64,000 nt of DNA from an uncultured delta proteobacterium (GTDB taxonomy: Bacteria > Myxococcota > Myxococcia > Myxococcales > Myxococcaceae), in assembly GCA_963771175.1 (NCBI GenBank), contig CAVYSY010000033.1, forward strand, positions 128,001-192,000, read 5' to 3'. Shown piece after piece: positions 4,367 through 64,000 of the stretch (position 1 is the stretch's first letter; each line of letters begins with the position of its first letter). The notes below the pieces were generated by a model. That model had not been told where the DNA came from and ran no database searches. It was given only the letters and a program-made list of their open reading frames with translations. Both the position numbers and the translations under genes were made by a program.

Positions 4367-4882
4367 GACGAACCCGGCCAAGACGACAGCGGTGCGAGCC
4401 ATCTGTGAGCGGGCCTTCCCCGGCTGCACCGTGGTGCCAATCGACGTCCGAGCGGAGTCCCCGAGCAACCCATCGGCTCCGAGCAGACCTCGACGGGAGC
4501 GCGCAACCGGGCGCGGGCGGCGCTGGCGGCCGTTGCGGGGGCGCGGATGGGCATGGGGTTGGAGGGGGGCGTGGACCCGGACGGCAGCCTCATCAACTGC
4601 GTGGTCGTGGTGGAGGCCGGGGGCCAGGAGAACCTGACCTGGGGTGTGCGCTTCCCCCTCCCCCCGAGCGTCGTCGCCCGGGTGCTGAAGGGCGAGGAGC
4701 TGGGCCGGGTCATGGACCAGGTCTCCGGCCGGACCGAGAGCAAGAAGCAGCTCGGAGCCGTGGGCATCCTCACCAACGGCATCTTCACGCGCGCCGAGAT
4801 GTGGCAGGGCCCGCTCGCCTGCGCGCTGATGCCCTTCCTGCACCCGGGGCTCTACCCCGCGCACCGCTCCGAATCCGTTTGA
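4367..4882 (+). pseudogene. yjjX: Degenerate second yjjX copy (5'-truncated, 1-nt deletion near 4448, altered C-terminus)
   Basis: Direct repeat of 2470-2962 lacking the first ~9 codons (MSFTIAIGS) and the RBS. Confidence 0.85.
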
Positions 4883-4886
4883 GGCC

Positions 4887-5222
4887 TCACCCCTCCAACC
4901 GGTGCTCGATGCGAATGAGCCGGACGCCCTTCGGCGTGCGCATGAGCGTGTCCCACCAGTCCGCCCCGTCATACCAATAGCGGATCTGCACCCCGAGCAC
5001 CCTCCCCTCCCGGAGCGCCTCCACGGCCTCGGCGAGCGGGACGGACTGCTCGGAGGCCATCGCCAGGGCTCCGCCCTTGAGCAGCACCTCCTTCACCACG
5101 GTGCAGCGCTGGATGTCCTGGAGGAGCTGCTCCAGCGTGTCCGAGTCGAGGATGGCGTCCTGCAACTGGGGAAGCGGGGTGTTCTCGGGAGCGGCATTCC
5201 CGAGGCGGAGAGCTGCTGTCAT
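4887..5222 (-). CDS. Hypothetical protein (111 aa), last gene of the nap operon
   Basis: MTAALRLGN..VQIRYWYDGADWWDTLMRTPKGVRLIRI; ATGA overlap with the upstream ferredoxin stop. Confidence 0.75.
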   Translation of the reverse strand: MTAALRLGNAAPENTPLPQLQDAILDSDTLEQLLQDIQRCTVVKEVLLKGGALAMASEQSVPLAEAVEALREGRVLGVQIRYWYDGADWWDTLMRTPKGVRLIRIEHRLEG

Positions 5223-5800
5223 GAGACGGCGACCTGCTGGTGGGAGGGAAGGAACTCGAAGGCGTTGAGCGGGGCCGGGCACACCTGGACGCAGACGCCA
5301 CAGCCGTTGCACCGCTCCTCCACCACGCGGGGGCGCCCCAGCTCGATGACGATGGCGTTCTCGACGGGGCAGCGCTCGGAGCAGGTGCTGCAGAACGAGC
5401 CCTGCCAGGCGAGGCAGAGCTGGGGACGCACGCGAACGGTCATCCCCGGGACGGGAGCACCCATCGGAGCGCCGGGATTCGCGGAGGACGGACCCCCAGC
5501 GGGAGGCGCGAGCGGAGCCATTCCGATCCGGCTGACGCCGTCCTGGGGGACGACGAGCCCCTCTCGCAGGGAGAAGACCGGGATGCTGTTTCCAGTGGCC
5601 TCGCCCGCCTGCGAACGGGAGGAATAGAACGCCTCGAGGGAGAAGCCACCGCCCGCTGCGGGAGCAGGCGCGGGTGCGGGCTCGGACACAACGGGCGCGG
5701 GCGCGGGAGCACGAGTGGGCTCCGGCGAAGGCGCGGGCTCCTCCTTCTTGCGAAGGAACCCGAAGAGCGCCCGGCGGCTGATGGCGGCCCGCGAGCTCAC
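5219..5800 (-). CDS. NapF/NapG-like 2x[4Fe-4S] ferredoxin
   Basis: GTG start overlapping the napB stop; SRRALFGF N-terminus; CLAWQGSFCSTCSERCP and CNGCGVCVQVCP. Confidence 0.8.
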   Translation of the reverse strand: MSSRAAISRRALFGFLRKKEEPAPSPEPTRAPAPAPVVSEPAPAPAPAAGGGFSLEAFYSSRSQAGEATGNSIPVFSLREGLVVPQDGVSRIGMAPLAPPAGGPSSANPGAPMGAPVPGMTVRVRPQLCLAWQGSFCSTCSERCPVENAIVIELGRPRVVEERCNGCGVCVQVCPAPLNAFEFLPSHQQVAVS

Positions 5801-6594
5801 GGCTTCGCCTCCGTCGCCATGCCCGCCAGACCCGGCTCCCCTGCCCCACCGACGCGCTGGTCGAGCCGCGCCGAGGAACCATGGCACTGCTGGCAGTTCT
5901 GCCGCTCCGGGTGCGAGGTGCGCAGCCCGGGGAGCCCCTTGGGCCCGTGGCAGCTCGCGCAATCGGTCCGCATGTGCGTCGAGTGAGGCATGGTCGGCGG
6001 TGCGCCCGGCCACGCCCGCGCACCATTCCCGGCCGAGGCCAGCCCGACGAAGCCGTTGCCCGGCATGTCCTTGTACGGGGCCAGCGGGCGAGGCGAATCC
6101 CCCACCACATGGCACTGCGTGCAGCTCTGGTACGGCTCGTGGCTGATCTTCGGAGCCACCCGGTTGCCCAGCTTCATCCCCTCGCCGTGGCAGGCGAGAC
6201 AGCCGGGGACCTCGCGCTGGTCGATGTCGTGCGGAATGGTCGGCGGCGCCCCGTCATACGCGCGGTGGGTCTTCCGCTGGGCCACGGCCTGCGCGCGCTG
6301 CTCGGAGGTGGCCACCGGCAGGGGCTTCACCGGCAACTCCTCCTCCGACAGCGAGGCAATGGCCCCCTCGTACATCCGCGCGTTGTCTCCACGCCGCGCC
6401 TCGCGCAGCTCGCCGTAGCTCAGAGCACGCTCCGCCCGTTGCGCATGCGGATCCGAAGCCACCGGTCGCTCGGGCATCTCCGGCGCACGGACCCCCGCGA
6501 AGTACCCGGTGGCCGCGAGCGCCACCGCCACGGCGGCGCCCACGTGGAGCCAGCGAGCCGGGAGGCCACTCCCCTGTTCGCCCTCGGGGTTCAT
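5797..6594 (-). CDS. napB: Nitrate reductase cytochrome c subunit, tetraheme (duplicated NapB-like domain)
   Basis: N-terminal hydrophobic helix; [22 protein letters not shown] and [22 protein letters not shown]; translationally coupled to napA. Confidence 0.85.
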
Positions 6595-9044
6595 CCCTGC
6601 TTCTCCGCGACGAGCTCACGCCGGCGCACCCGGGCCGCGCACTTCTTGTAGTCCGGCTGCTTGGAGAACGGGTCGTGCGCGTCGAGCGTGAGCCCGTTGA
6701 TGAGCAGCCGCTCGTCGAAGAACGGGACGAACAGCGAGCCCGGCGGCGGGCTCGCCGCGACCGTCGATCCACACCGGCAGCTCGAGCTTCCCGCGCCGCG
6801 TCTCGAGCGTCACCGAGTTCGCCGTTGCCGCACGCCGAGCCGCCGCGCGTCGTCGCGGTTCATCTCGACGTAGGCCTGCGGCATCGCGCGCTGGAGCTGC
6901 GGGAATGCGCATCGTCATCGTGCCGGTGTGCCAGTGCTCGAGCACGCGGCCGGTGCAGAGCCAGAAGGGGATACTCGGCGTCGGGCGACTCGGGCGGCGG
7001 CTCGTAGGGGCTGGAACCAGATCTGCGCGCGGTCGTCCTTGGTGGTCGAGTGGTAGAACTGGATGTCGCGTGCCCTTCTTCACGTACGGGTCGTCGAAGC
7101 CGGAGAAGCGGAACCGCGTCTCGCGCCAGCGTGCCGTCCGGCTGCTGCACCACCGGCCAGCGCAGGCCGCGCGCCTTCACGTACTCCGCGTAGGGCGCGA
7201 GGTCCTTGTGCTTGATGCGGCGTGAACTTGCGGTACTCCTCGAAGAGGTGCTCGTCGACGTTGACGTCGTAGTAGTGGGCGAAGTCCCAGATGGGCACCG
7301 GCTTGCCGTCCTTGCCCTTCAGCGTCGAAGAGGAACCGGCCGTCCTTGTCCTTCATCCCCGCGATGCCCGAGCTCGAAGAGCCGGTGCGCGACGGCGATG
7401 ATCTGCCAGCAGTCGTCGCGCGCCTCGCCCGGGCGGCTCGACCATCTTGAACCACTGCTGCGTGCGGCGCTCGGAGTTGCCGAACATGCCGTTCTTCTCG
7501 ACCCACATGCGCCGACGGCAGGACGAGATCGGCCGATGCGCGTCGTCGCGGTCGGGTAGACGTCGGAGACGATGAGGAACTTGTCCGCGAGCTTGCGGCT
7601 CGGGATCGAACAGCTCGTGCAGTTGGGCAGCGACTGGCCGGGGTTGGTGACCTGCACCCAGATCGTGTCGATGTCGCCGCCCTGGTCCGTGGGCGTGGAG
7701 AAGCGCTTCCACATCTCGACGGTGTGGTAGCCGGGCTTGGCGTTGATGCGGCCCGCGGGGACGTTCCAGATCTCCTCGGCCTCCTCGCGGTGCTCGGCGT
7801 TGGCGACCACGCAGGCCGCCGGGGAGCGCGTGGGCGAGCGTGCCGACCTCGCGCACCGTGCCGCACGCGGAGGGCTGGCCGGTGAGGCTGGTCGGCGCGT
7901 CGCCCGGCTTGCCGAAGTGCCCGCTGAGCAGGTGGACGCCGTGGACGAGGTTGTTGATCGCCGTGCCGCGCGTGTGCTGGTTCATGCCCATGCACCACAG
8001 GCTGGTGATGCGCAGGTCGCGCCGGCCGAACAGCTCGGCGAGCATCGCGGATGTCCTTCGCCGGCGACGCCCGAGAGCTGCTCCACCTTCTCCGGGCGTG
8101 TACTCGGCGAGCAGCCTTCTTGTACTCGTCGAAGGTGATGGCCTTGCCCTCGAGCGTCGGCGGCTCGTCGGCGCGCGCGGAAGGCGCAGTGCTTCTCGAC
8201 GAAGTCCTTGTCGTAGGTGCCGTTCTCGACGCAGCAGGTGCGCGATGCCGCAGGCGATCGCGAGGTCGCGCGTGCGGCTTGAAGCGCGAGCACGTGATCG
8301 GCAGAACCCGCTGGTGCGCGTGCGGCGCGTGCCGATGTCGATGAGGGTGACCTTCTCGCCGCGCGAGCGCCGGTCGATGACGCGCGAGAACAGCACCGGG
8401 TGCATCTCGGCGGGGTTGTTGCCCCAGAGTGATGAGCACGTCGCACGTGTCGAGGTCGTCGTAGCAGCCGGCCGGCTCGTCGACGCCGTAGGTGGCGAGG
8501 AAGCCCGTCACCGCCGAGGACATGCAGAGCCGCGCGTTGGCGTCGATCTGGTTGGTCGCCGAGCCCGCCCTTGATGAACTTGTTGGCGGCGTAGCCCTCG
8601 GGGATCGTCCACTGGCCGCTGCCGTAGATGGCGAAGCCCGCGGGGTTCTTCATGCACGCGCTTGGCGATGATGTCGATCGCCTCGTCCCACGAGATGGGC
8701 TCGAGCTTGCCGTTCTTGCGCAGGAGCGGCGTGGTGCAGGCGATCCTCGCCGTAGAGCGCGAGGCCGACGTGGTAGCCCTTCACGCAGAGCAGGCCCTTG
8801 TTCACCTCGGCCTTCTGATCGCCCGCGATCGCGACGACCTTGCCGTCCTGCACGCCGACCTGGACGTGGCAGCCGGTGCCGCAGAACCGGCACGGCGCCT
8901 TGTTCCACGTGCACGCCGTCGCCGTGACGGGCGGCGGCCGACGGCGTCCGCGGCGGCCTCGTCCTGGCCGTAGCGCGAGCCGGCGCGGCCGCGACCGTCG
9001 CCGCCGCCATCGCCGAGCCGCTTGAGGAAGTCCCGGCGATCCAT
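6591..9044 (-). CDS. napA: Periplasmic nitrate reductase catalytic subunit (multiple apparent frameshifts)
   Basis: Tat motif [21 protein letters not shown] [4Fe-4S]; [20 protein letters not shown] with the Mo-ligand Cys; [37 protein letters not shown], spread over several frames. Confidence 0.93.
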
Positions 9045-9049
9045 CAGCC

Positions 9050-9303
9050 TCAGCCCTCCTCGTGCTCTGAGAAGTCGATCCATCACCACGTCCACGAAGC
9101 GCACGCCGGCGGCTCCGTCAGCGCGACTCGCGCGAGCGCCTCGCCCTCCTGCGAGCGTCGCCGTCTCGGTCGACCACCGGCAGCCAGCGCTCCTCGCGCG
9201 TCGCCGCCCAGCGTGATGCGCGGGTCGCGAGCAGCTCCGAGGGCGCGCGAGCCTCAGCGCGGGTCACAGCGTCGAGGGTGACGACCAGGCCGCTGATCGG
9301 CAT
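9050..9303 (-). CDS. napD: NapD-like signal-peptide chaperone (frameshifted)
   Basis: [10 protein letters not shown] start and VRFVDVV near the end; ~85 codons directly upstream of napA. Confidence 0.75.
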
Positions 9304-9464
9304 GCGGGTCCGCCCGTCGCAGCACGCCCGCCCATGGAGCAAGAGGCGGACCACTCCGACGCGCCACCGGCATCCGGCACGCGTGACGCGCAAGTCTGCG
9401 CGCGACCGTGCATCGGCGATGCGCGGCATCGCCGCCTCGAGGCGTCGCGAGGCAGACGCGCGCG

Positions 9465-9480
9465 TGGCACGGACCCTGCT
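9465..9480 (+). promoter_or_regulatory. Putative sigma54 (-24/-12) promoter for the cytochrome/NrfC/NrfD operon
   Basis: TGGCAC-GGACC-CTGCT matches TGGCAC-N5-YTGCW just upstream of the cytochrome ORF. Confidence 0.6.
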
Positions 9481-9515
9481 TTGCGCGATCCCCGTGGCGA
9501 GCCACCTCTCGATTC

Positions 9516-10125
9516 ATGCGCCCGTCGCTCGTCGCCGTCGCTGCTCGCCGCTCGGCGGATGCCGGCAGGACCAACCCGCGCGCTTCGCAGCCGGCCCCCG
9601 GGAGCGCCGACTGGCGACGACGGTCGATCCACGCAGCCGGCGAAGCTCACGCTCGGTCGAGACCGACCAGAAGGACGCGCTCGGCCGGCCCATCCGCGTC
9701 GCGTGCGTCACGCTGCCACTCGCTGCGCGACGCCGAAGCCCGCTGCCCCGACGGCCCGAGCGAACTGAAGGAGTTCCACCAGGGCCTCCGTTCAGCCACG
9801 GCGACGCTCGCCTGCGCGCGTGCCACGTCACCAGGCCGCGCAGCGCACGCACGCTCCACCTCGCCGACGGGCGAGCCGCTGCCGATGACGCGAGGCGATG
9901 ACGCTGTGCGCGCAGTGCCACGGGCCGCAGTTCCGCGACTACCAGCACGGCGCGCACGGCGGCATGAACGGCCACTGGGATCTCTCGCGAGGACGACCGC
10001 CGCGCAACCACTGCGTCGACTGCCACGATCCGCACGCGCCGAAGTTCGCGGCCGTCGCATCCGGTGCTGCCGCCGCGCGATCGCGGCCGCCGACGGCGAG
10101 CCGCCGAGCTCGGAGCGCACCATGA
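9516..10125 (+). CDS. Multiheme (probably tetraheme) c-type cytochrome, possibly a lipoprotein (frameshifted, start uncertain)
   Basis: Intact CAQCH and CVDCH motifs; two further CxxCH motifs (near 9705-9720 and 9813-9826) broken by single-base indels; LGGC near the N-terminus. Confidence 0.7.
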
Positions 10126-11046
10126 GTGACAAGGTCGACCGCCGCGCCGTGACGCTCAAGGTGCTCGGCGGCCACGCTCGGCGCCGGCGCCTTCGCGCTA
10201 CGCGATGGCGCCGCTCACGCGAGTGGACGCAGGACCTGACGCGTCGATGAGTTCCTCCAGAAGCACTACAAGGAGCTGACGCCGCGACGAGCTGGCGACG
10301 GTCCTCGCGCGACCTCGAGGCCGAGACGCGAAGACGAAGTACGGCCGCGACGTGACCATCCAGCGACCTGCCGCCGCGACGGAGGGCGTCGAGTTCGGCT
10401 ACGCGCTCAACCTGAGCGTCTGCATCGGCTGCCGCAAGTGCGCCGAGGCCTGCCACATCGAGAACAACCACGATCGCGCGCACCAACAACTCGTACATCC
10501 GCGTGCTCGAGATGGAGCAGGGCAGCTTCGACCTGGAGCACGGCAACGCGCACTACGACCACGCCGGTGCCCGCGCCGGGCAAGTACTACATGCCGGTGC
10601 AGTGCCAGCAGTGCGACAACGCGCCGTGCGTGAAGGTCTGCCCGGTCGCAGGCGACCTGGAAGGAGCCGGACGGCATCGTCGTCGTCGACTACAACTGGT
10701 GCATCGGCTGCCGCTACTGCGAGGCCGCGTGCCCGTACCACGCGCGGCGCTTCAACTGGACGAAGCCGGAGATCCCCGCCGACGAGATCAACCCCGACCA
10801 GGGCTACCTCTCGAACCGCATCCGCCCGCAGGGCGTGGTCGAGAAGTGCACCTTCTGCCTGCACCGCACGCGCGAGGGCCGGCTGCCCGGCGTGCCTCGA
10901 GGCGTGCCCGACCGGCGCGCGCGTGTTCGGCAACCTGCTCGATCCGAACAGCGAGATCCGCTGGGTGCTCGAGAACAAGCGCGTCTTCGTCCTCAAGGAG
11001 GAGCTCGGGACGCAGCCCGCGCTTCTTCTACTTCTTCGACAAGTGA
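10122..11046 (+). CDS. NrfC/DsrO-like 4x[4Fe-4S] electron-transfer subunit (frameshifted)
   Basis: VDRR twin-Arg; CIGCRKC, CQQCDNAPCVKVCP, CIGCRYCEAACP, EKCTFCLHR..PACLEACPTGAR. Confidence 0.88.
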
Positions 11047-11068
11047 GCCGGTCGCCATCGCACCGAGC

Positions 11069-12379
11069 ATGCTCGCCGCAGTCACACGCGTCGAGCTACC
11101 CGCGCTTCCTGCGGCGGCTCGCTGCTGGCGCGCATCGACGGGAGCTGGCGCTTCTACGCCGTGGATGACGCGTGCTCACGGCGATCGCCCTGGTCGGGCG
11201 CCAACGCCTGGGCGCACCAGGTCGCGCGACGGCATGGCGCGTCACCGGCGATGACGCGACCACGTCTCGTGGGGGCTCTACATCGCCAACTTCACCTTCG
11301 GCGTCGGGCTCGCGGCCGGCGCGGTGATGATGGTCATCCCCGCCTACCTCTACGACGACCACGAGATGCACGACGTGGTGATCATCGGCGAGCTGCTCGC
11401 CGATCGCCGCGATCGTCATGTGCCTCGCTGTTCGTCGTGGTCGACATGGGCCGCCCCGATCGCTTCTGGCACCTCATGCCCGGCGATCGGCCGGTTCAAC
11501 TGGCCGATCTCGATGCTCACCTGGGACGTGATCGTGCTCAACGGCTATCTGCTCCTCAACCTGCACATCTGCGGCTACCTCGCTCTACATGCGCTTCCTC
11601 GGGCGCAAGCCCGAGCAAGCGCTGGTACCTGCCGTTCGTCTTCCTCTCGATCGTCTGGGCGATCTCGATCCACACCGTGACGGCGTTCCTCTACAGCGGG
11701 CTCGGCGGCCGGCCGTTCTGGAACTCGGCGCTGCTCGCGCCGCGGTTCATCGCGTCGGCGTTCGTCACCGGCCCCGCGTTCGTCATCGTGCTGCTGCAGG
11801 TCATCCGCCGCGTCACGGCGCTTCCGCGTCGGCGACGGGCCCGATCGCGCACGCTGACGTCGGTGCTCCGCGTGACGGTGCTCGCTCAACCTGTTCATGC
11901 TGGGCTCGGAGCTGTTCACCGCGCTTCTACACGGGCGGCGCGCACGCCACGCGCGGCGCGCTACCTGTTCTTCGGCTCGCACGGGCAGCACGCGCTCGTG
12001 CCGTGGATCTGGACGGCGATCGCGCTCAACGTCGCCTCGGCGGTCCTGCGTGCATCTGCCCGCGAGCCGCGCGCGACAGCTGCGGCTGCTCGACCTGGCG
12101 TGCGCGCTGCGCGTTCGCCGGCGTGTGGATCGAGAAGGGCATGGGCCTCATCATCCCCGGCTTCGTCCCGAGCACGCTGCACGAGGTCGTCGAGTACGTG
12201 CCCGAGCGCTCACCGAGTGGAAGGTGACCGCGGGCATCTGGGCCTTCGGGCTGATGGTGCTGACGGTCGCGGTGAAGGTCGCGCTGCCGGTGCTGAGTGG
12301 GCAGCTCGCCGCCTCGCATGCCGAGCACGCACCGGCCGGACATGGAGACACGGCCCCTGAATCAAAGCAGGCCGCGTAG
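11069..12379 (+). CDS. NrfD/PsrC-family (DsrP-like) integral membrane quinol-interacting subunit (frameshifted)
   Basis: HVSWGLYIANFTFGVGLAAGAVMMVIPAY, DMGRPDRFWH, SMLTWD, SIHTVTAFLY..RPFWNSALLAPRFIASAF, WIEKGMGLIIPGFVP. Confidence 0.88.
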
Positions 12380-12380
12380 G

Positions 12381-12460
12381 GTCACAAGACGGACGCGAAC
12401 AACTGCGGCGCCTGCGGTGTGGTGTGCCCGAACGGGTGCGCCGACGGGAGCTGCCAGTGA
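12381..12460 (+). pseudogene. C-terminal remnant of a myxobacterial cysteine-rich repeat protein
   Basis: Reads TDANNCGACGVVCPNGCADGSCQ-stop with no start, immediately after the nrfD-like stop. Confidence 0.6.
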
Positions 12461-12506
12461 GCTGAACGGGGCCGGCGCCGGCTGCACGCGACGAGTCCCG
12501 GGAGAG

Positions 12507-13079
12507 CTACCAGCGCAGGACGAAGGTCGTCCGGCCCCGTTCGAGGTCGACGTCCCTCAAGCTGAGGCTCGCCGTCCCGGCGTGATTGGCCACGTCCACG
12601 AGCCCGAGGAGGGTGCTGCCGACCAGCAATGCGGTCGTGCCCGTGCGGTAGGTGCTGGCGGGGAAATCGCGCATCGTCAGGTGCGCGCATCGCTCGTCCA
12701 CGCATGTGTACGTGAGCTCGCCCGAGTCGCGCACGATGGATTCGCGCCCCCGCGGGGCGAACTTCAAGAGGGAATGCGGCGACAGCCCGGAGATGCGGAT
12801 CATCGCCTCGAGCGCCGCCTGGAACAGCGGTGTCTTGATCAGCCGGCGTCCGACCTTCCGGAACAGCGCCTGAAACGCCTCATCGCCCAGTTCGGCGCGC
12901 GTCGCTTCGGTGAGGGCGTTGTACGTCTCCTCGTCGAGCCACATGACGGGCAGCGCCTGTTCGATGTGCGTCCACGCCGGCCCGGTCCGGGCGCGGATGG
13001 CCGCGGTGACGTTGGGCGGCAGCGCCCTGAGCTCATCCATGATGTTGTGCGCGAAGCTGGCCTTGGTCTGAGGGCTCAT
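12507..13079 (-). CDS. Myxobacterial hypothetical protein (DUF2378/TIGR02265-like)
   Basis: 190 aa; ALPVMWLDEETYNAL..GLSPHSLLKFAP.. and C-terminal TTFVLRW resemble this family. Confidence 0.6.
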   Translation of the reverse strand: MSPQTKASFAHNIMDELRALPPNVTAAIRARTGPAWTHIEQALPVMWLDEETYNALTEATRAELGDEAFQALFRKVGRRLIKTPLFQAALEAMIRISGLSPHSLLKFAPRGRESIVRDSGELTYTCVDERCAHLTMRDFPASTYRTGTTALLVGSTLLGLVDVANHAGTASLSLRDVDLERGRTTFVLRW

Positions 13080-13409
13080 CGTTCCGCTCACCAGCCTGAC
13101 AGATTCGTTATGGCAAGTGCAGGGGGGGGAAGAGAGGCGGCGAACGTATAGAGGAGATGAAGCGGCCGGGCGGCCACGGGCGTGGAGGCCCAGTGGATTT
13201 TGAGCTTGCGGCCCTACCGGAAACGTTGGCGGCATCACCCTACTATCCACGTAACCGGGGCAAGCCCAGTAGCCCCGCGACAGTCTACGTGTTCCTCGCA
13301 AAGCAGGCTCTCTCATCGAGCTTGCTGTCGCCGATGATCAATCGGCAATCGGATTCGGGCGCCTTGAAATTCAGCGCCCGACCGCCATCAGAAGAACCTG
13401 AAGCAGGGC

Positions 13410-14187
13410 TCAACGCCTGTCTTCACTTCGTCGCCGAGGGAGGGGCACGGTTTCCGGGCAGTCCTCACGAAAAGCTATCGAAGTGGCTGATTGAGCACCG
13501 GGGCACCTGTAATTGCACTGCCACTCTTTGAGACCATCTTTTCGCACCCAGGAGTTCTTCGTGGTAAGCTGGCAAACACCCGGTTTTTCGAGTAAGCGGA
13601 TGGCCCTTTCCATCCCCGCGCGAAGTGACTTGTCCTGTTCCTGCTCCCAAGCCCGCTTCAGGAAGGGAATAGCTCCCGGATTACCGGTGCCCAGCATGAG
13701 ATACATCACCTCGTAGCGGAATTCCAAATTCCCCTCGATCAGCAATTTCTCTCCCATGACCCGGAGGGCCTCCTCTCTGAGAGGAGACCTTCTCCAGCTG
13801 TTTGAGCGCTTCAGCCACGGCATCCGGAGGCACACCTACATCCAACGCCAGTGCTCGCAGAACTGGAACGGAAGATGCCCCCTCCACGGCCGCGAATCCC
13901 TCGATGGCGGCAGCGAGTTCGAGCGCTTGGACGTAATCGGTGGTGTGTCGGTATTGCTCGATGACCTTGCGATAGAGCGGAAGCGCTTCACGCCCATGCT
14001 TCCGGATGAACCGCTCGACCGCCCCCTCGTCCGCGGTTTCTGGCAGATCCAGATACTTCGGCTGGCGTGCCTGCACCATCTGGGAGAACTCTCTCTTCAG
14101 ACAAGCAGTCCAGGAGAGAGCCAGCCCCAAGAGCAAGCCCAGTCGCACCGCTCCCCTGACGCTCCTTCGTGCCCATGCGCTCGACAT
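13410..14187 (-). CDS. HEAT-repeat lipoprotein with Cys-rich C-terminus, paralog 1 (indel near 13780)
   Basis: Lipobox LSWTAC; ORFs 13681-14187 and 13410-13835 together align with 16339-17127; visibly AT-richer than the flanks. Confidence 0.75.
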
Positions 14188-14364
14188 TCAGCCCCCTCTG
14201 GTATTCACCGGTGTTCATGAATCGTGACCTGCGCGCGCGAATGGAGGCCATGCTCGCCGCCGCGGCAGCGGTCGGAGGGTAGCTCGCCCAGGAACCGACA
14301 CGATCCTCGGTCTATCGGCCGCGCATCACAAGGGACGCCTGTGGACTCCTCCAAGGGGTCACCC

Positions 14365-15252
14365 ATGGAGCAATCGATGCAGACCCAGGCAAGGCGCTTG
14401 GTATCCCCCGAGCCAGAGTCCTCCGCGAGTCCAGTCCTGGCCGAATGCCCGCAACTGGAAGCCCTGACGGTGGAGTCGCTCATCGTGCCGATATTGCAGG
14501 CGCAGATCGAGGCGATCTGGCCGCAGGAAGTGGACCTCCTCCTGCGTTACCCGCTGCCCGCGCAGCCTGCCCTCCTCGACGTGGGCTGCGGCACGGGCGA
14601 GTTCATGGCCAGGCTCGCGGCGCTCTGGCCGGAGGCTCGCATCACGGGATTGGATCTCGCGCCCACGCTGCTGGACATCGCCCAGCGCCGCACCGCCTCC
14701 TCTGACCGCATCACCTACCGCCAGGGGAACGGGGCCCACCTGCCCTTCGAGGATGACTCGCTCGATGGCGTGTTCTGCCGGCACGTCTTGCAAGCCGTCA
14801 GCAGGCCCGAGCTCATCCTCGACGAGATGATCCGCGTCCTGAAGCCGGGCGGTGTGCTCCACCTCCTCGCGGAGGACTACGGCATGATCTACAGCTCCCG
14901 AGGCGACCCGGACCTGGACAGGCTGTGGCGGGAGGGCTGGATCGCAGCCGGAGAGAACAGCGGGATCGACCTGCGCATTGGCCGGAAGGTTCCCTCGATG
15001 CTCCTACACAGGCGGATGCGAGATGTCCGGATGAACTTCGCCCAGGTCGATTCCCTGCGCGTGAATCGGAGCACCCTCCGGAGGCTCTTCCAGCACTGGA
15101 AGGACTTCGCCAACGAATGGGTGGTCAAGAACTCCAGCCTGCCAGCGAAGGAGCTGAACGCACTCCATGATGACCTACTCGCCACGCTCGACACTCCCAA
15201 CGAGCAGGTCCTCTGGATGGTGCCCCTCATCTCCGCGGTGAAGCCCACGTGA
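14365..15252 (+). CDS. Class I SAM-dependent methyltransferase
   Basis: LLDVGCGTG, ITGLDL, LPFEDDSLDGVFCRHVL, RVLKPGG. Confidence 0.88.
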   Translation: MEQSMQTQARRLVSPEPESSASPVLAECPQLEALTVESLIVPILQAQIEAIWPQEVDLLLRYPLPAQPALLDVGCGTGEFMARLAALWPEARITGLDLAPTLLDIAQRRTASSDRITYRQGNGAHLPFEDDSLDGVFCRHVLQAVSRPELILDEMIRVLKPGGVLHLLAEDYGMIYSSRGDPDLDRLWREGWIAAGENSGIDLRIGRKVPSMLLHRRMRDVRMNFAQVDSLRVNRSTLRRLFQHWKDFANEWVVKNSSLPAKELNALHDDLLATLDTPNEQVLWMVPLISAVKPT

Positions 15253-58911: not shown

Positions 58912-59220
58912 TTACGCGAGGGGCACTATTGGGACGTGCAGGATGTCACCCACGTCGACGGAGGGTGGCTCGTCCTCTTCGTGCTCGGCGGCGGGAGGAG
59001 GCCTTGGAGCCATCGGAACGGTCGCGGGGGTGGGGGCCACGACAACCGGGCGCGCGTGGGAGCAGCAGACGCAATCGGTGCAGTCCGGGGCACACTGCCC
59101 GCGCTCGTCATCGTCCCGGCAGCTCTGCGTGCACACGTCACCCGAGCTGGCGGGCGACAACAGGCCACCACCGACTGGGGTAGACAGCAGGAGGCTGAGG
59201 AAGAGCCAGAGCCGGAGCAC
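58912..59220 (-). CDS. Small exported Cys-rich protein heading the czc operon (CzcI/DUF2946-like)
   Basis: GTG start with AGGAG RBS; signal peptide; CTQSC..CAPDCTDCVCCSH; C-terminal ILHVP. Confidence 0.7.
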   Translation of the reverse strand: MLRLWLFLSLLLSTPVGGGLLSPASSGDVCTQSCRDDDERGQCAPDCTDCVCCSHARPVVVAPTPATVPMAPRPPPAAEHEEDEPPSVDVGDILHVPIVPLA

Positions 59221-59236
59221 GTGGAGCACTCCTAAC

Positions 59237-59262
59237 ACGTCGTCAAATGATTTGTTCGACGT
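59237..59262. promoter_or_regulatory. Imperfect palindrome upstream of the czc operon (candidate operator)
   Basis: ACGTCG-T-CAAAT-G-ATTTG-TT-CGACGT. Confidence 0.4.
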
Positions 59263-59382
59263 TGCTGCCCGACGAGACCAGATTGCTGCTCGGAGTGTCG
59301 CGCATAAGGACCTCAACCGCATGGGCGGCCCCCTTCTCGTCCCCGAGGACGAGGAATAAGGATTGCAGGTATTGGTTCCTCC

Positions 59383-61914
<2,532 letters not shown>

Positions 61915-61935
61915 CCCGCAGTACCCCACCCCTCC

Positions 61936-64000
61936 ATGAAGACGCTTCCGTCCTGGTTGCTCCTGCTGTGCCTCGGGCTCACCGCGCCCGCGCTGGCCCA
62001 GCGCCGCCCCGGCCCGCCCGCTCCGGCGGGCACTCCCGCCGAGCGGCAGGTCGCCCCGCAGACGCCCTCGGGCCCCGAGGCCGGTGGCGCCACCATCGCG
62101 GCCCGACGCCCACGTGCGAGGAGGTCCGTCGCCGCGCCCGCTACGGCATCTACTTCGACAAGGTGGAGATCGAGAAGCTGGTGCAGACCGTCTCGGACGT
62201 CACCTGCAAGCACGTTCATCCTCCCGGAGAACGTGCGCGGGAAGATCTCCATCATCGGCCCGGAGAACGGCACGCGTGGAGGTGGACCGCCGACCAGTTC
62301 TACGCCGCCTTCCTCGCGGCGCTCGACGCCAACGGCCTGGCCGTCTACCAGCACGGGCGCTTCCTGAAGATCGTCGACAAGCGCGCCGCCAAGCAGAACC
62401 CCATCCCCACCATCATCGACGGTGACGCGCCCTACACCGTCAACGAGCAGATGATCACCAAGCTGTTCCGCATCAAGAACGTGGAGGTGGAGCCCCTGCG
62501 CGGCGTGCTGCAGCAGCTGGTGTCCAAGGACGGCGACACCATCCCGTTCCCGCCGGACATCATCATCGTCAACGACGTGGGCTCCAACGTGCACCGGCTC
62601 GAGCGGATCATCGATCAGCTCGACTCGCGCGCGGCCAGCGACGAGATGCGCATCATCCAGGTGCAGTACGCCACCGCGCAGGACGTGGCCGACACGGTGC
62701 AGAAGCTCTTCGAGGAGAAGGGCGGAAGCCGTCCCGGCGGCCGCGCGGGTGCTCCCGCCATGGTGCCGCCGCCCGGCGGCAGAGCGGCGCCCCCATGGCC
62801 GCCGCTCGCCGACAACGGCACCGGAGGGCCGGTGACCCTCTCGCAGATCATCCCCGACGAGCGCACCAACAAGCTCATCGTCGTCGCCAGCCCCGCCGCC
62901 TTCGAGCGCATCCAGAGCTGGTGCGCGAGCTGGACATCCCCATCGCCGGCGACGGGCGCATCAACGTCTACTCCCTGGAGAACGCCAACGCCGAGGAGAT
63001 CGCCAGCACGCTGCAGACGCTCTCGCAGGGCAGCGCCAGCCGGCCGCGCACGCCCACGCCGCAGCCCGCCGGGCGCCCCGCCCGGGTGGCACCGGCGCCC
63101 GCTCCGCCGAGCTGTTCGCCGGCGAGGTGAAGATCTCCGCGGACAAGGGCACCAACTCGCTGGTCATCATCGCCAGCCAGAGCGACTACCGCAGCCTCGT
63201 GCGCGTCATCGCGAGCTCGACAAGCCGCGCCGCCAGGTCTTCGTCGAGGCGGTCATCATGGAGGTCAACCTCGACCGCAACAACGAGTTCGGGCTGAACC
63301 TGCACAGCGGCTACACGCTGTCCACGCCGCTGGGCGACGGCGCGGGCATCGTGGGCACCAAGTACACCAGCAGCGGCGCGCCCGCCCTCCTTCTCGCTGG
63401 TCAACCTGGCCAGCTTCGGCGGCTTCCTCGCCGGCCTGCAGGGCCCCGTCATCCCCGAGCTGAAGGCCCTGGGCATCGACATCCCCGCCTTCGGCGTGGT
63501 GCTGCACGCGCTCCAGCAGAGCTCGGACGTCAACGTGCTCTCCACCCCGCACATCCTCACCAGCGACAACGAGGAGGCGGAGATCACCGTGGGCCAGAAC
63601 GTGCCCTTCCAGGCGGGCTTCACGCCCTCCTCGCTGGGCACCGGCACTCGGCACCACCGCCGGCGGCACCAGCGGCGCCTCCGCCGTCGCTGCTCGGCGC
63701 CCTGGGCGGCCTGGGCAGCCTCTACGCCCCCATCCACCGCCAGAACGTGGAGCTCAAGCTCAAGATCAAGCCGCAGATCAACGAGAGCGACTACATCCGC
63801 CTGACAGTCGACGAGCAGACCGAGGAGATCGCCTCCACGGACCCGGCGCTCGGCCCCACCACCTCCAAGCGCAGCGCCAAGACGACGGTGGTGGCCAAGG
63901 ACCAGGAGACGGTGGTCATCGGCGGCATCATGCAGGAGCGCACGCTCGAGTCGGTGCCGAAGGTGCCGATCCTCGGCGACATCCCGCTCATCGGCCAGCT
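61936..64000 (+). CDS. gspD: Type II secretion secretin (indels; runs off the window)
   Basis: N domains (IEKLVQTVSD, DERTNKLI, DKGTNSL), QVFVEAVIMEV, VLSTPHILTSDNEEAEITVGQNVP, KVPILGDIPLIG. Confidence 0.92.

Follow-up and report, generated by a model that had tools for sequence, protein, structure and literature searches.

The window analysed here, a stretch of 64,000 nucleotides from an uncultured bacterium of the Myxococcaceae (GenBank assembly GCA_963771175.1, contig CAVYSY010000033.1, positions 128,001 to 192,000), contains at 4887-12379 an eight-gene cluster for a periplasmic nitrate reductase (Nap), arranged as two divergent operons. The minus strand carries napD, napA, a four-haem napB (napB4), a ferredoxin gene and a gene that we call X; the plus strand carries genes for a four-haem cytochrome c (Cyt4), an NrfC/DsrO-like iron-sulfur (Fe-S) protein and an NrfD/DsrP-like membrane protein, hereafter the trio. 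Genes were mapped by DNA alignment from an intact relative, locus L004 of the complete genome G006, from which their coordinates were transferred to the window. Only X, the ferredoxin gene and napB4 are open in the window, the other five genes being split among many frames, and in the window's own fragments Pfam detects just pieces of NapB, Molydop_binding, Fer4 and NrfD. Protein families were read on the intact relative instead, using NCBIfam and Pfam profiles with curated cut-offs. The gene content proposed for this interval in the original prediction is borne out in full, as is the lack of a NapC or NapH gene in the cluster, and the twin-arginine translocation (Tat) motif, the Fe-S motif CRFCGTGC and the molybdenum-cysteine motif ARLCM that had been claimed for NapA are all readable in the window, in three different frames.

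The products of the nap operon are recognisable but divergent. The intact orthologue of NapA (6591-9044, minus strand), the catalytic subunit with a molybdenum bis(pyranopterin guanine dinucleotide) cofactor (Mo-bisPGD), has 806 amino acids and scores 868.1 bits against NCBIfam NF010055 (cut-off 904; positions 3-828 of 830) and 848.6 bits over the full length of TIGR01706 (cut-off 930.55). It has a Pfam TAT_signal at residues 1-19, of which MDRRDFLK is readable in the window, a Molybdop_Fe4S4 domain (60.8 bits) and both molybdopterin domains. Among solved structures it comes closest to the NapA chains 3ML1, 1OGY and 2NYA, matched at full length with E values of 1e-204 to 1e-208, and its motifs CRFCGTGC and ARLCMASA are aligned with their counterparts in 3ML1; ARLCMASA we take to carry the cysteine that ligates molybdenum in NapA. 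We read the sub-threshold scores as the near miss of what appears to be a divergent subfamily, and not as evidence of another function. That the molybdoenzyme is NapA-like with some other substrate, and not a nitrate reductase, is scarcely credible: it would account for scores slightly under both NapA equivalog cut-offs, but not for the full-length alignment to three solved NapA chains at E values around 1e-205, the retention of the Fe-S and molybdenum-cysteine motifs, or the position of the gene beside those for NapD and a NapB-type cytochrome.

The accessory proteins depart further from their families. NapD (9050-9317, minus strand), the putative NapA chaperone, is so divergent that the Archangium protein alone matches no family; the Pfam NapD family (PF03927) is nevertheless matched by 14 of 34 orthologues (best E value 8.6e-9), and the best solved matches of the family profile are E. 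coli NapD structures (2PQ4 and 2JSX, E value about 0.005, full length). NapB4 (5797-6594, minus strand, 265 amino acids) matches Pfam NapB (PF03892) at 36 bits (cut-off 25.1). It has four CXXCH motifs in all 70 orthologues, and its two halves are 44% identical over 59 amino acids (E value 3e-12), each containing one APPTIPH motif, two CXXCH motifs and one invariant histidine; on this sequence evidence NapB4 arose by tandem duplication of the dihaem unit of NapB. An N-terminal hydrophobic segment, present in 63 of the 70 orthologues, would anchor it to the membrane. The ferredoxin-type protein (5219-5797, minus strand) has two C-terminal [4Fe-4S] motifs and an N-terminal twin-arginine (RR) motif, and is possibly NapF-like, although it matches only the generic Fer4 families of Pfam and reaches just 24 bits against NapF TIGR00402 (cut-off 102). 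Its gene is less conserved than the others of the cluster, being found at 42 loci by tblastn (E value at most 1e-6), where the same search finds orthologues of X at 66. X (4887-5222, minus strand), a soluble protein of 111 amino acids encoded by the last gene of the operon, is conserved at the operon end in three phyla and belongs to no Pfam or NCBIfam family. Its AlphaFold model is a confident alpha/beta structure (predicted local distance difference test score, pLDDT, of 85) for which Foldseek returns nothing from the PDB at an E value of 0.001 or below, and the highest Z from a wide VIA-align comparison, 7.4, does not exceed background; in the ESM Atlas it is found only in clusters of 'hypothetical protein' from Myxococcota and Verrucomicrobiota.

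The trio begins with Cyt4 (9494-10129, plus strand), a predicted periplasmic tetrahaem cytochrome c, either a lipoprotein or membrane-anchored, which matches generic multihaem Pfam families only. Four CXXCH motifs are present in 79 of 81 orthologues together with four further invariant histidines, which would fit bis-histidine ligation. The NrfC-like protein (10122-11046, plus strand; 301 amino acids) has Fer4 domains only, with motifs for four Fe-S clusters, an RR motif that suggests Tat export, 16 invariant or near-invariant cysteines and a mean column identity of 79% across 40 orthologues. Among NCBIfam families it comes closest to DsrO (183 bits, cut-off 200), and against NrfC TIGR03149 it scores 119.8 bits (cut-off 377.6). 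The NrfD-like integral membrane protein (11050-12379, plus strand), the presumed site of quinol binding, passes the cut-offs of both NCBIfam DsrP (425 bits against 350) and Pfam NrfD PF03916 (126.3 bits against 25.8), and a crude hydropathy count gives it approximately 9-11 hydrophobic segments. Its sole solved sequence relatives are the ActC chains of alternative complex III (ACIII; 6F0K_C, E value 3.5e-10). In public records the nap-linked membrane subunit goes under the names 'DsrP', 'polysulfide reductase NrfD', 'Ni/Fe-hydrogenase subunit HybB-like' and 'molybdopterin-containing oxidoreductase family membrane subunit', and automated sulfur-cycle annotation of genomes with the nap-trio cluster may be misled by such names.

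The breakage of the window copy is concentrated in one patch. When the region was aligned with four relatives of the same genus, and changes seen in the window copy only were counted as private, 98 private insertion events, around 83 of them single-base, were found between 6743 and 12206, versus 10 private deletions in the same span. The five broken genes contain 94 of the 98 events (napA 33, napD 6, the Cyt4 gene 17, nrfC 15 and nrfD 23). The patch starts within napA, 150 bases from its 3' end, and from 4449 to 6742 there are no private insertions or deletions except one in-frame insertion of 21 bases at 5695, in the ferredoxin gene. Across columns invariant in the four relatives, private substitutions amount to 4-16% inside the patch versus 0-3.4% outside. 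The assembly itself comprises 9.83 Mb in 58 contigs, with approximately 70% G+C and a marker-gene completeness of 81.7%. Segmentation of the whole genome by codon phase marks 908 of 9805 one-kilobase bins as having at least four same-strand phase switches, and these merge into 203 patches of at least 2 kb, distributed across contigs and covering 729 of 9805 kb (about 7% of the assembly). A second patch that was compared with four relatives (C33:286.8-292.5 kb) has 83 one-base insertions versus 3 one-base deletions and 5-10% private substitutions; taking it together with the patch in the window, one-base insertions occur about once every 55-70 bases with 5-10% private substitutions, the remaining patches being known from segmentation alone. 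One of the latter, at C33:187-195 kb, covers the last 5 kb of the window (59000-64000) and is a candidate patch.

We conclude that the frameshifts are almost certainly errors of sequencing or assembly and not gene decay, because the insertions are nearly all one-base, the boundaries are sharp and fall within genes, and the same signature recurs in about 200 patches of unrelated genes. One-base, non-homopolymer, insertion-only noise confined to sharply bounded patches of 5-6 kb resembles, we infer, uncorrected long-read sequence. Contigs of a public sequencing run, X1, at similar depths (24-30), differ from the window at 4 of 323 letters in the flank and at about 10% of letters inside the patch, and they lack the single letters at 6742, 8047, 8065, 8174, 10477, 10563, 11923, 11952 and 12049 that are the window's private insertions. 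It could be countered that the frameshifts are real and the cluster a decaying pseudogene block in this strain, since natural loss does occur within the genus (one genome, G012, retains deleted remnants only, and another, G010, has no cluster) and since the inserted bases were compared with contigs of related or near-identical organisms, there being no public sequencing run that holds half or more of the region's sequence words (best share 0.19). Such decay is highly improbable, however, when set against 98 insertion events to 10 deletions, almost all of one base, changes that begin and end sharply inside genes and recur across the assembly, contigs that match the flank at about 99% and are without the inserted letters, and a completeness of just 81.7% for a genome in 58 contigs. 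The remnant in G012, an Archangium genome (G012:C108:7667-11870), has lost most of napA and parts of cyt4 and nrfC but keeps nrfD intact; in contrast to the artefact in the window, this is natural decay at an intermediate stage. The error patches break genes artificially, and every pseudogene call made on this assembly should first be checked against them.

A contaminant, or a mis-assembly of foreign DNA, can be ruled out, as the block is syntenic with its relatives: in 14 of 17 genomes of the same genus there is a colinear match of at least 6.4 kb at 82-87% identity. Near-identical loci are present in public records of Archangium (A. minus, A. violaceum, A. gephyra and A. lansingense) and Vitiosangium. 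The co-occurrence of the trio with napA, which the original prediction proposed to survey, was examined on a wider scale at the 80 public loci that contain the closest relatives of NrfD (55-95% identity) in a public species collection. NapA is present in 73 of the 80, so that the trio does not usually occur without napA; of the seven loci that lack it, four are short or edge contigs and three have an NrfD of no more than 56% identity. Two gene orders are seen, the divergent order of the window (n=67) and a colinear order, cyt4-nrfC-nrfD-napD-napA-napB4-(fdx)-X (n=6). The carriers within Myxococcota are Archangium, Vitiosangium, Pyxidicoccus, Myxococcus, Sorangium (including So ce56), Polyangiaceae, Kofleriaceae and Haliangiales, and the system is not peculiar to this lineage, since it occurs in three phyla, with Opitutaceae and Rariglobus among Verrucomicrobiota and Phycisphaerales and others among Planctomycetota. 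In a tree of NrfD, which was a quick maximum-likelihood search with long outgroup branches and contained no reference DsrP, QrcD, ActC, PsrC, NrfD, MccD or DsrPh, all 72 nap-linked rows and three rows from short contigs form one clade (Shimodaira-Hasegawa-like approximate likelihood ratio test, SH-aLRT, 99), with the copies that lack nap outside it. In an even sample of 401 genomes from across Myxococcota, each NrfD match of at least 61% identity has a full-length NapA match next to it on the same contig. In G105 a more distant trio, with an NrfD of 55% identity, comes after genes for a NapA-like protein and a canonical NapB of 168 amino acids.

A different explanation would make the trio an all-purpose quinol:cytochrome c oxidoreductase, akin to ACIII in minimal form, that feeds several periplasmic acceptors such as NrfA, oxidases or other cytochromes, with Nap as one client or a mere neighbour. 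Homologues of NrfD at E values of 1e-60 or below are found in 117 of the 401 genomes, compared with 53 that have a match to the NapA query (E value at most 1e-120), many of the latter being half-length matches to other molybdoenzymes. Six loci without nap were examined, at which homologous trios are accompanied by a monohaem cytochrome c, by large multihaem cytochromes, by a c554-like cytochrome or by an EB_dh protein. A role of this kind has also been proposed for the DsrOhPh-tetrahaem locus in the available text of a study of cable bacteria (PMC13047784). We nonetheless consider this explanation unlikely for the cluster in the window, for within the clade of the window protein nap genes are present at every locus with enough flanking sequence, linkage persists under a changed gene order and across three phyla, and Archangium genomes have a single copy of the trio, located at nap. 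The family f7, with genomes of 4-6 Mb, has an NrfD match at an E value of 1e-60 or below in 65 of 67 genomes, none of which adjoins a full-length NapA match. At two f7 loci (L024:7768-10923 and L031:8425-11613) a homologous cyt4-nrfC-nrfD trio is followed by a gene for a class I monohaem cytochrome c of 100 amino acids, and the f7 trio looks like a minimal quinol:cytochrome c oxidoreductase.

The two operons of the cluster also share a promoter type. A sigma-54-like -24/-12 element, TGGCAC-N5-CTGCT, is directed at the cytochrome gene (9465-9480, plus strand) and another at napD (9338-9353, minus strand), and between them lies a palindrome, GCGCA-N4/5-TGCGC (9388-9401), that is a candidate activator-binding site. 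Allowing no more than two mismatches and requiring the GG and GC to be retained, such elements are found upstream of Cyt4 at 52 of 79 loci, where shuffled sequences predict 1.9, and upstream of NapD at 41 of 61, where they predict 1.5; upstream of NapA, which is internal to its operon, there are none at 76 loci. The palindrome is seen in intergenic regions of Archangium, Myxococcus/Pyxidicoccus and Sorangium loci as well as in the window. Both operons seem to be under the control of sigma-54 promoters situated on either side of this shared palindrome. At one locus (G060, L025:12220-14796) nrfD is followed by genes for a histidine kinase and an NtrC-type sigma-54-dependent response regulator. 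A box of the FNR/CRP type (TTGAT-N4-ATCAA, no more than two mismatches) was dropped as a candidate in favour of the sigma-54-like elements, as just 2 of 56 loci have one between nap and cyt4.

In the usual descriptions Nap has four operon types and receives electrons from one of two quinol dehydrogenases, NapC or NapGH. NapH exceeds its cut-off in none of the 18 genomes of the genus. The NapC/NirT/NrfH family (PF03264) has matches in 17 of the 18, but the two copies examined, both from G006, prove to be NrfH (161 bits, cut-off 134) and adjoin NrfA-like genes (285-302 bits, cut-off 595) approximately 250 kb or more from nap. The concern that a napC or napH elsewhere in the genome might serve Nap is not borne out by these results. 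NrfH genes lie beside genes for an NrfA-like pentahaem nitrite reductase at G000:C33:360027-360422 and G000:C29:6284-6712 in the genome of the window and at L021:7666-9686 and L022:8827-10844, with two such pairs in G006. Cytochrome b (PF00033) is absent from all three complete genomes of the genus and there is therefore no bc-type complex in them; such a complex has been added to the list of Nap donors for Campylobacter, according to the available text of PMC6195509. Elsewhere in Myxococcota, nap loci without the trio have a different candidate donor at the same place, comprising Rieske, cytochrome b and octahaem cytochrome genes in G120 and, in G092, a gene for a cytochrome with weak similarity to NrfH (45.9 bits, cut-off 134.2).

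It might still be that Nap is fed by NrfH or by an ACIII-type complex through a soluble cytochrome c, and that the trio works in the opposite direction, as a reductase that passes electrons from a periplasmic donor to quinone in the manner of Qrc or Nhc. There are NrfH-family genes in nearly all genomes of the genus and four more NrfD-family genes in G006, and Qrc and Nhc demonstrate that NrfD-type complexes can reduce quinone (PMC8076601, in its available part). This arrangement is improbable, however, as NrfH stands beside an NrfA-like gene in both examined cases and far from nap, the cluster encodes neither a hydrogenase nor a formate dehydrogenase nor any other periplasmic enzyme that would donate electrons, and linkage with a terminal reductase fits quinol oxidation better.

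Our preferred reading is that the eight genes encode a Nap system in which the NrfD-type trio is the quinol donor to NapA, and we give this a probability of about 70%. We base it on the linkage to nap, the structure of the NrfD clade, the promoter type common to both operons and the fact that the usual donors are lacking. The napD-napA-napB4-fdx-X operon would provide a Tat-exported NapA, its chaperone and a membrane-anchored four-haem NapB, and the cyt4-nrfC-nrfD operon a three-subunit membrane complex of the NrfD family. Quinol, perhaps menaquinol, would be oxidised at NrfD, from where electrons would reach NapB4, and finally NapA, by way of four Fe-S clusters in NrfC and four haems in Cyt4, so that the trio would replace NapC or NapGH as donor. 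The original prediction had cast the trio as the dedicated quinol dehydrogenase of Nap, and comparative genomics supports that role; complex formation, the direction and path of electron flow and any effect on the proton-motive force are what we infer from it. A complex prediction with NrfC, Cyt4 and, as partner, NapB4 gave a score of 0.00, which is evidence neither for nor against binding. Combined with the NrfH/NrfA-like pairs elsewhere in the genome, Nap would allow the reduction of nitrate to ammonium in a myxobacterial genus usually thought to be aerobic.

A number of observations weigh against this reading. Homologous trios with an NrfD of 42-56% identity occur without nap in many Myxococcota, so the module family appears to be a general adaptor between quinol and cytochromes of which one clade is tied to Nap, and which could serve other acceptors here too. 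The four other NrfD-family genes in G006, possibly belonging to ACIII, could feed periplasmic cytochromes. NapA falls just under both NCBIfam equivalog cut-offs (868 versus 904 and 849 versus 931). The NrfD tree is, as described, a quick search with long outgroup branches; related genomes are non-independent, so that the locus counts overstate the number of independent observations; and the promoter elements lie just 30 nucleotides or so from the chosen start codons, some of which are probably wrong and too far upstream. Lastly, the link between Nap and the trio is known from comparative genomics.

The combination of genes in the cluster has partial analogues among known systems. A review of Nap from 2026 (PMC13223375) distinguishes four operon types, napEDABC, napDAGHB, napCMADGH and napAGHBFLD; the available text does not mention NrfD, and a donor module of the present type is missing from its operon lists. 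Conversely, a review of the NrfD family covers fourteen complexes and, in its available part, does not mention Nap or a nitrate reductase (PMC8076601). In the openly accessible literature, including the available portions of PMC11896075, PMC12780646, PMC5516251 and PMC10926707, we found no nap cluster with an NrfC/NrfD-type donor, a search that stopped short of subscription journals and of supplements (Tables S2 and S3 of PMC13047784). Like classical Nap, the system has a Tat-exported NapA with a [4Fe-4S] cluster and cysteine-ligated Mo-bisPGD, a NapD chaperone, a NapB-type cytochrome and a small ferredoxin gene, and its electrons presumably come from the quinol pool. Unlike classical Nap it has no NapC in the cluster and no NapH either there or in the 18 genomes of the genus; its donor would be a cofactor-less NrfD-type protein with an NrfC-type Fe-S protein and a separate tetrahaem cytochrome; and its NapB is tandem-duplicated and membrane-anchored and is accompanied by the extra conserved protein X.

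The proposed route is reminiscent of NrfABCD in E. coli, where an NrfD-family membrane subunit is connected through a periplasmic protein with four [4Fe-4S] clusters and a multihaem cytochrome to a soluble periplasmic reductase (PMC8076601, available part). Here, however, the terminal enzyme is NapA and not NrfA, and the membrane subunit resembles DsrP and has about 10 hydrophobic segments. Membership of NrfABCD can be ruled out, as both the NrfC-like protein (119.8 bits against 377.6) and the NrfB-type pentahaem family (25 against 184) score far below the equivalog cut-offs. Alternative complex III (ActABCDEF) is a quinol:cytochrome c oxidoreductase likewise built on an NrfD-type subunit, and its ActC chains, as noted, are the only solved homologues of the membrane subunit of the trio. 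Unlike ACIII, the locus has a single NrfD-family gene, with no ActF as a second NrfD-like subunit and no ActD or ActE; there is no fused molybdopterin-like domain of the ActB type, and the haem subunit has four haems and not five. The missing ActB fusion and the missing ActF at the locus exclude membership of ACIII.

The trio also resembles the DsrJOP half of DsrMKJOP: its membrane protein scores above the DsrP cut-off (425 against 350), and its Fe-S subunit has DsrO as nearest family but stays below that cut-off (183 against 200). Unlike Cyt4, however, with its four CXXCH motifs in 79 of 81 orthologues, DsrJ is a trihaem cytochrome; and neither DsrM nor DsrK is among the open reading frames of the locus, to which that search was confined. 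Having a tetrahaem and not a trihaem cytochrome, and no DsrMK at the locus, the system is not a DsrMKJOP complex. A locus of similar composition, DsrOhPh-tetrahaem, was described in March 2026 from cable bacteria, some Desulfobulbales and some Gamma- and Betaproteobacteria (PMC13047784). Its function was called unknown, with electron transfer from quinone to the periplasm suggested, and no link to nap is made in the available text. On the paper's description, it resembles the trio in having a DsrOP-like pair and a tetrahaem cytochrome of the His-His type without DsrMK at the locus. The difference is that the module in the window is linked to nap, which supplies a concrete candidate acceptor.

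Whether the trio might make periplasmic nitrate reduction proton-motive, by proton uptake or pumping through the NrfD subunit, is a question we raise tentatively and because of the analogy with Qrc and the proposals made for ACIII and DsrP; on balance we think it doubtful. If it were true, the Nap of myxobacteria, Verrucomicrobiota and Planctomycetota would be an energy-conserving respiratory enzyme and not one of redox balancing, and the orphan DsrOhPh-tetrahaem complexes found in cable bacteria and in sulfur oxidisers would be explained by the same chemistry. More generally, a further widespread type of Nap built on an NrfD-family module would change the annotation of nap genes, the scoring of nitrate-reduction potential in soil Myxococcota, Verrucomicrobiota and Planctomycetota, and the energy yield that is attributed to periplasmic nitrate reduction. 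It would also give the orphan DsrOP-tetrahaem module, the role of which is called unknown in the available text of PMC13047784, a defined acceptor. Since the module is present in cultured myxobacteria (Myxococcus, Pyxidicoccus, Archangium and Sorangium), the question is open to ordinary genetics.

Two further layouts illustrate how nap genes are accompanied in other Myxococcota. In L027 (G105:C110:1-8859) the order is napA-napB(canonical)-cyt4-nrfC-nrfD-octahaem(HDH-like)-NnrS, and in L032 (G120:C1, locus 7330-14803) it is Rieske-cytochrome b-octahaem-napA-napB. The HDH-like octahaem cytochrome next to nap in such layouts recalls the 'NapAB-pOCC' pairing reported for cable bacteria in the available part of PMC10926707. 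In the window, the cluster is preceded by two copies of a gene for a nucleoside triphosphatase (NTPase) of the DUF84/ITPase type (2444-2965 and 4368-4879, both on the plus strand), which are 96% identical. The copy that adjoins X has a private one-base deletion at 4448, which divides it into two open reading frames, and a second copy of this NTPase gene is found elsewhere in relatives as well.

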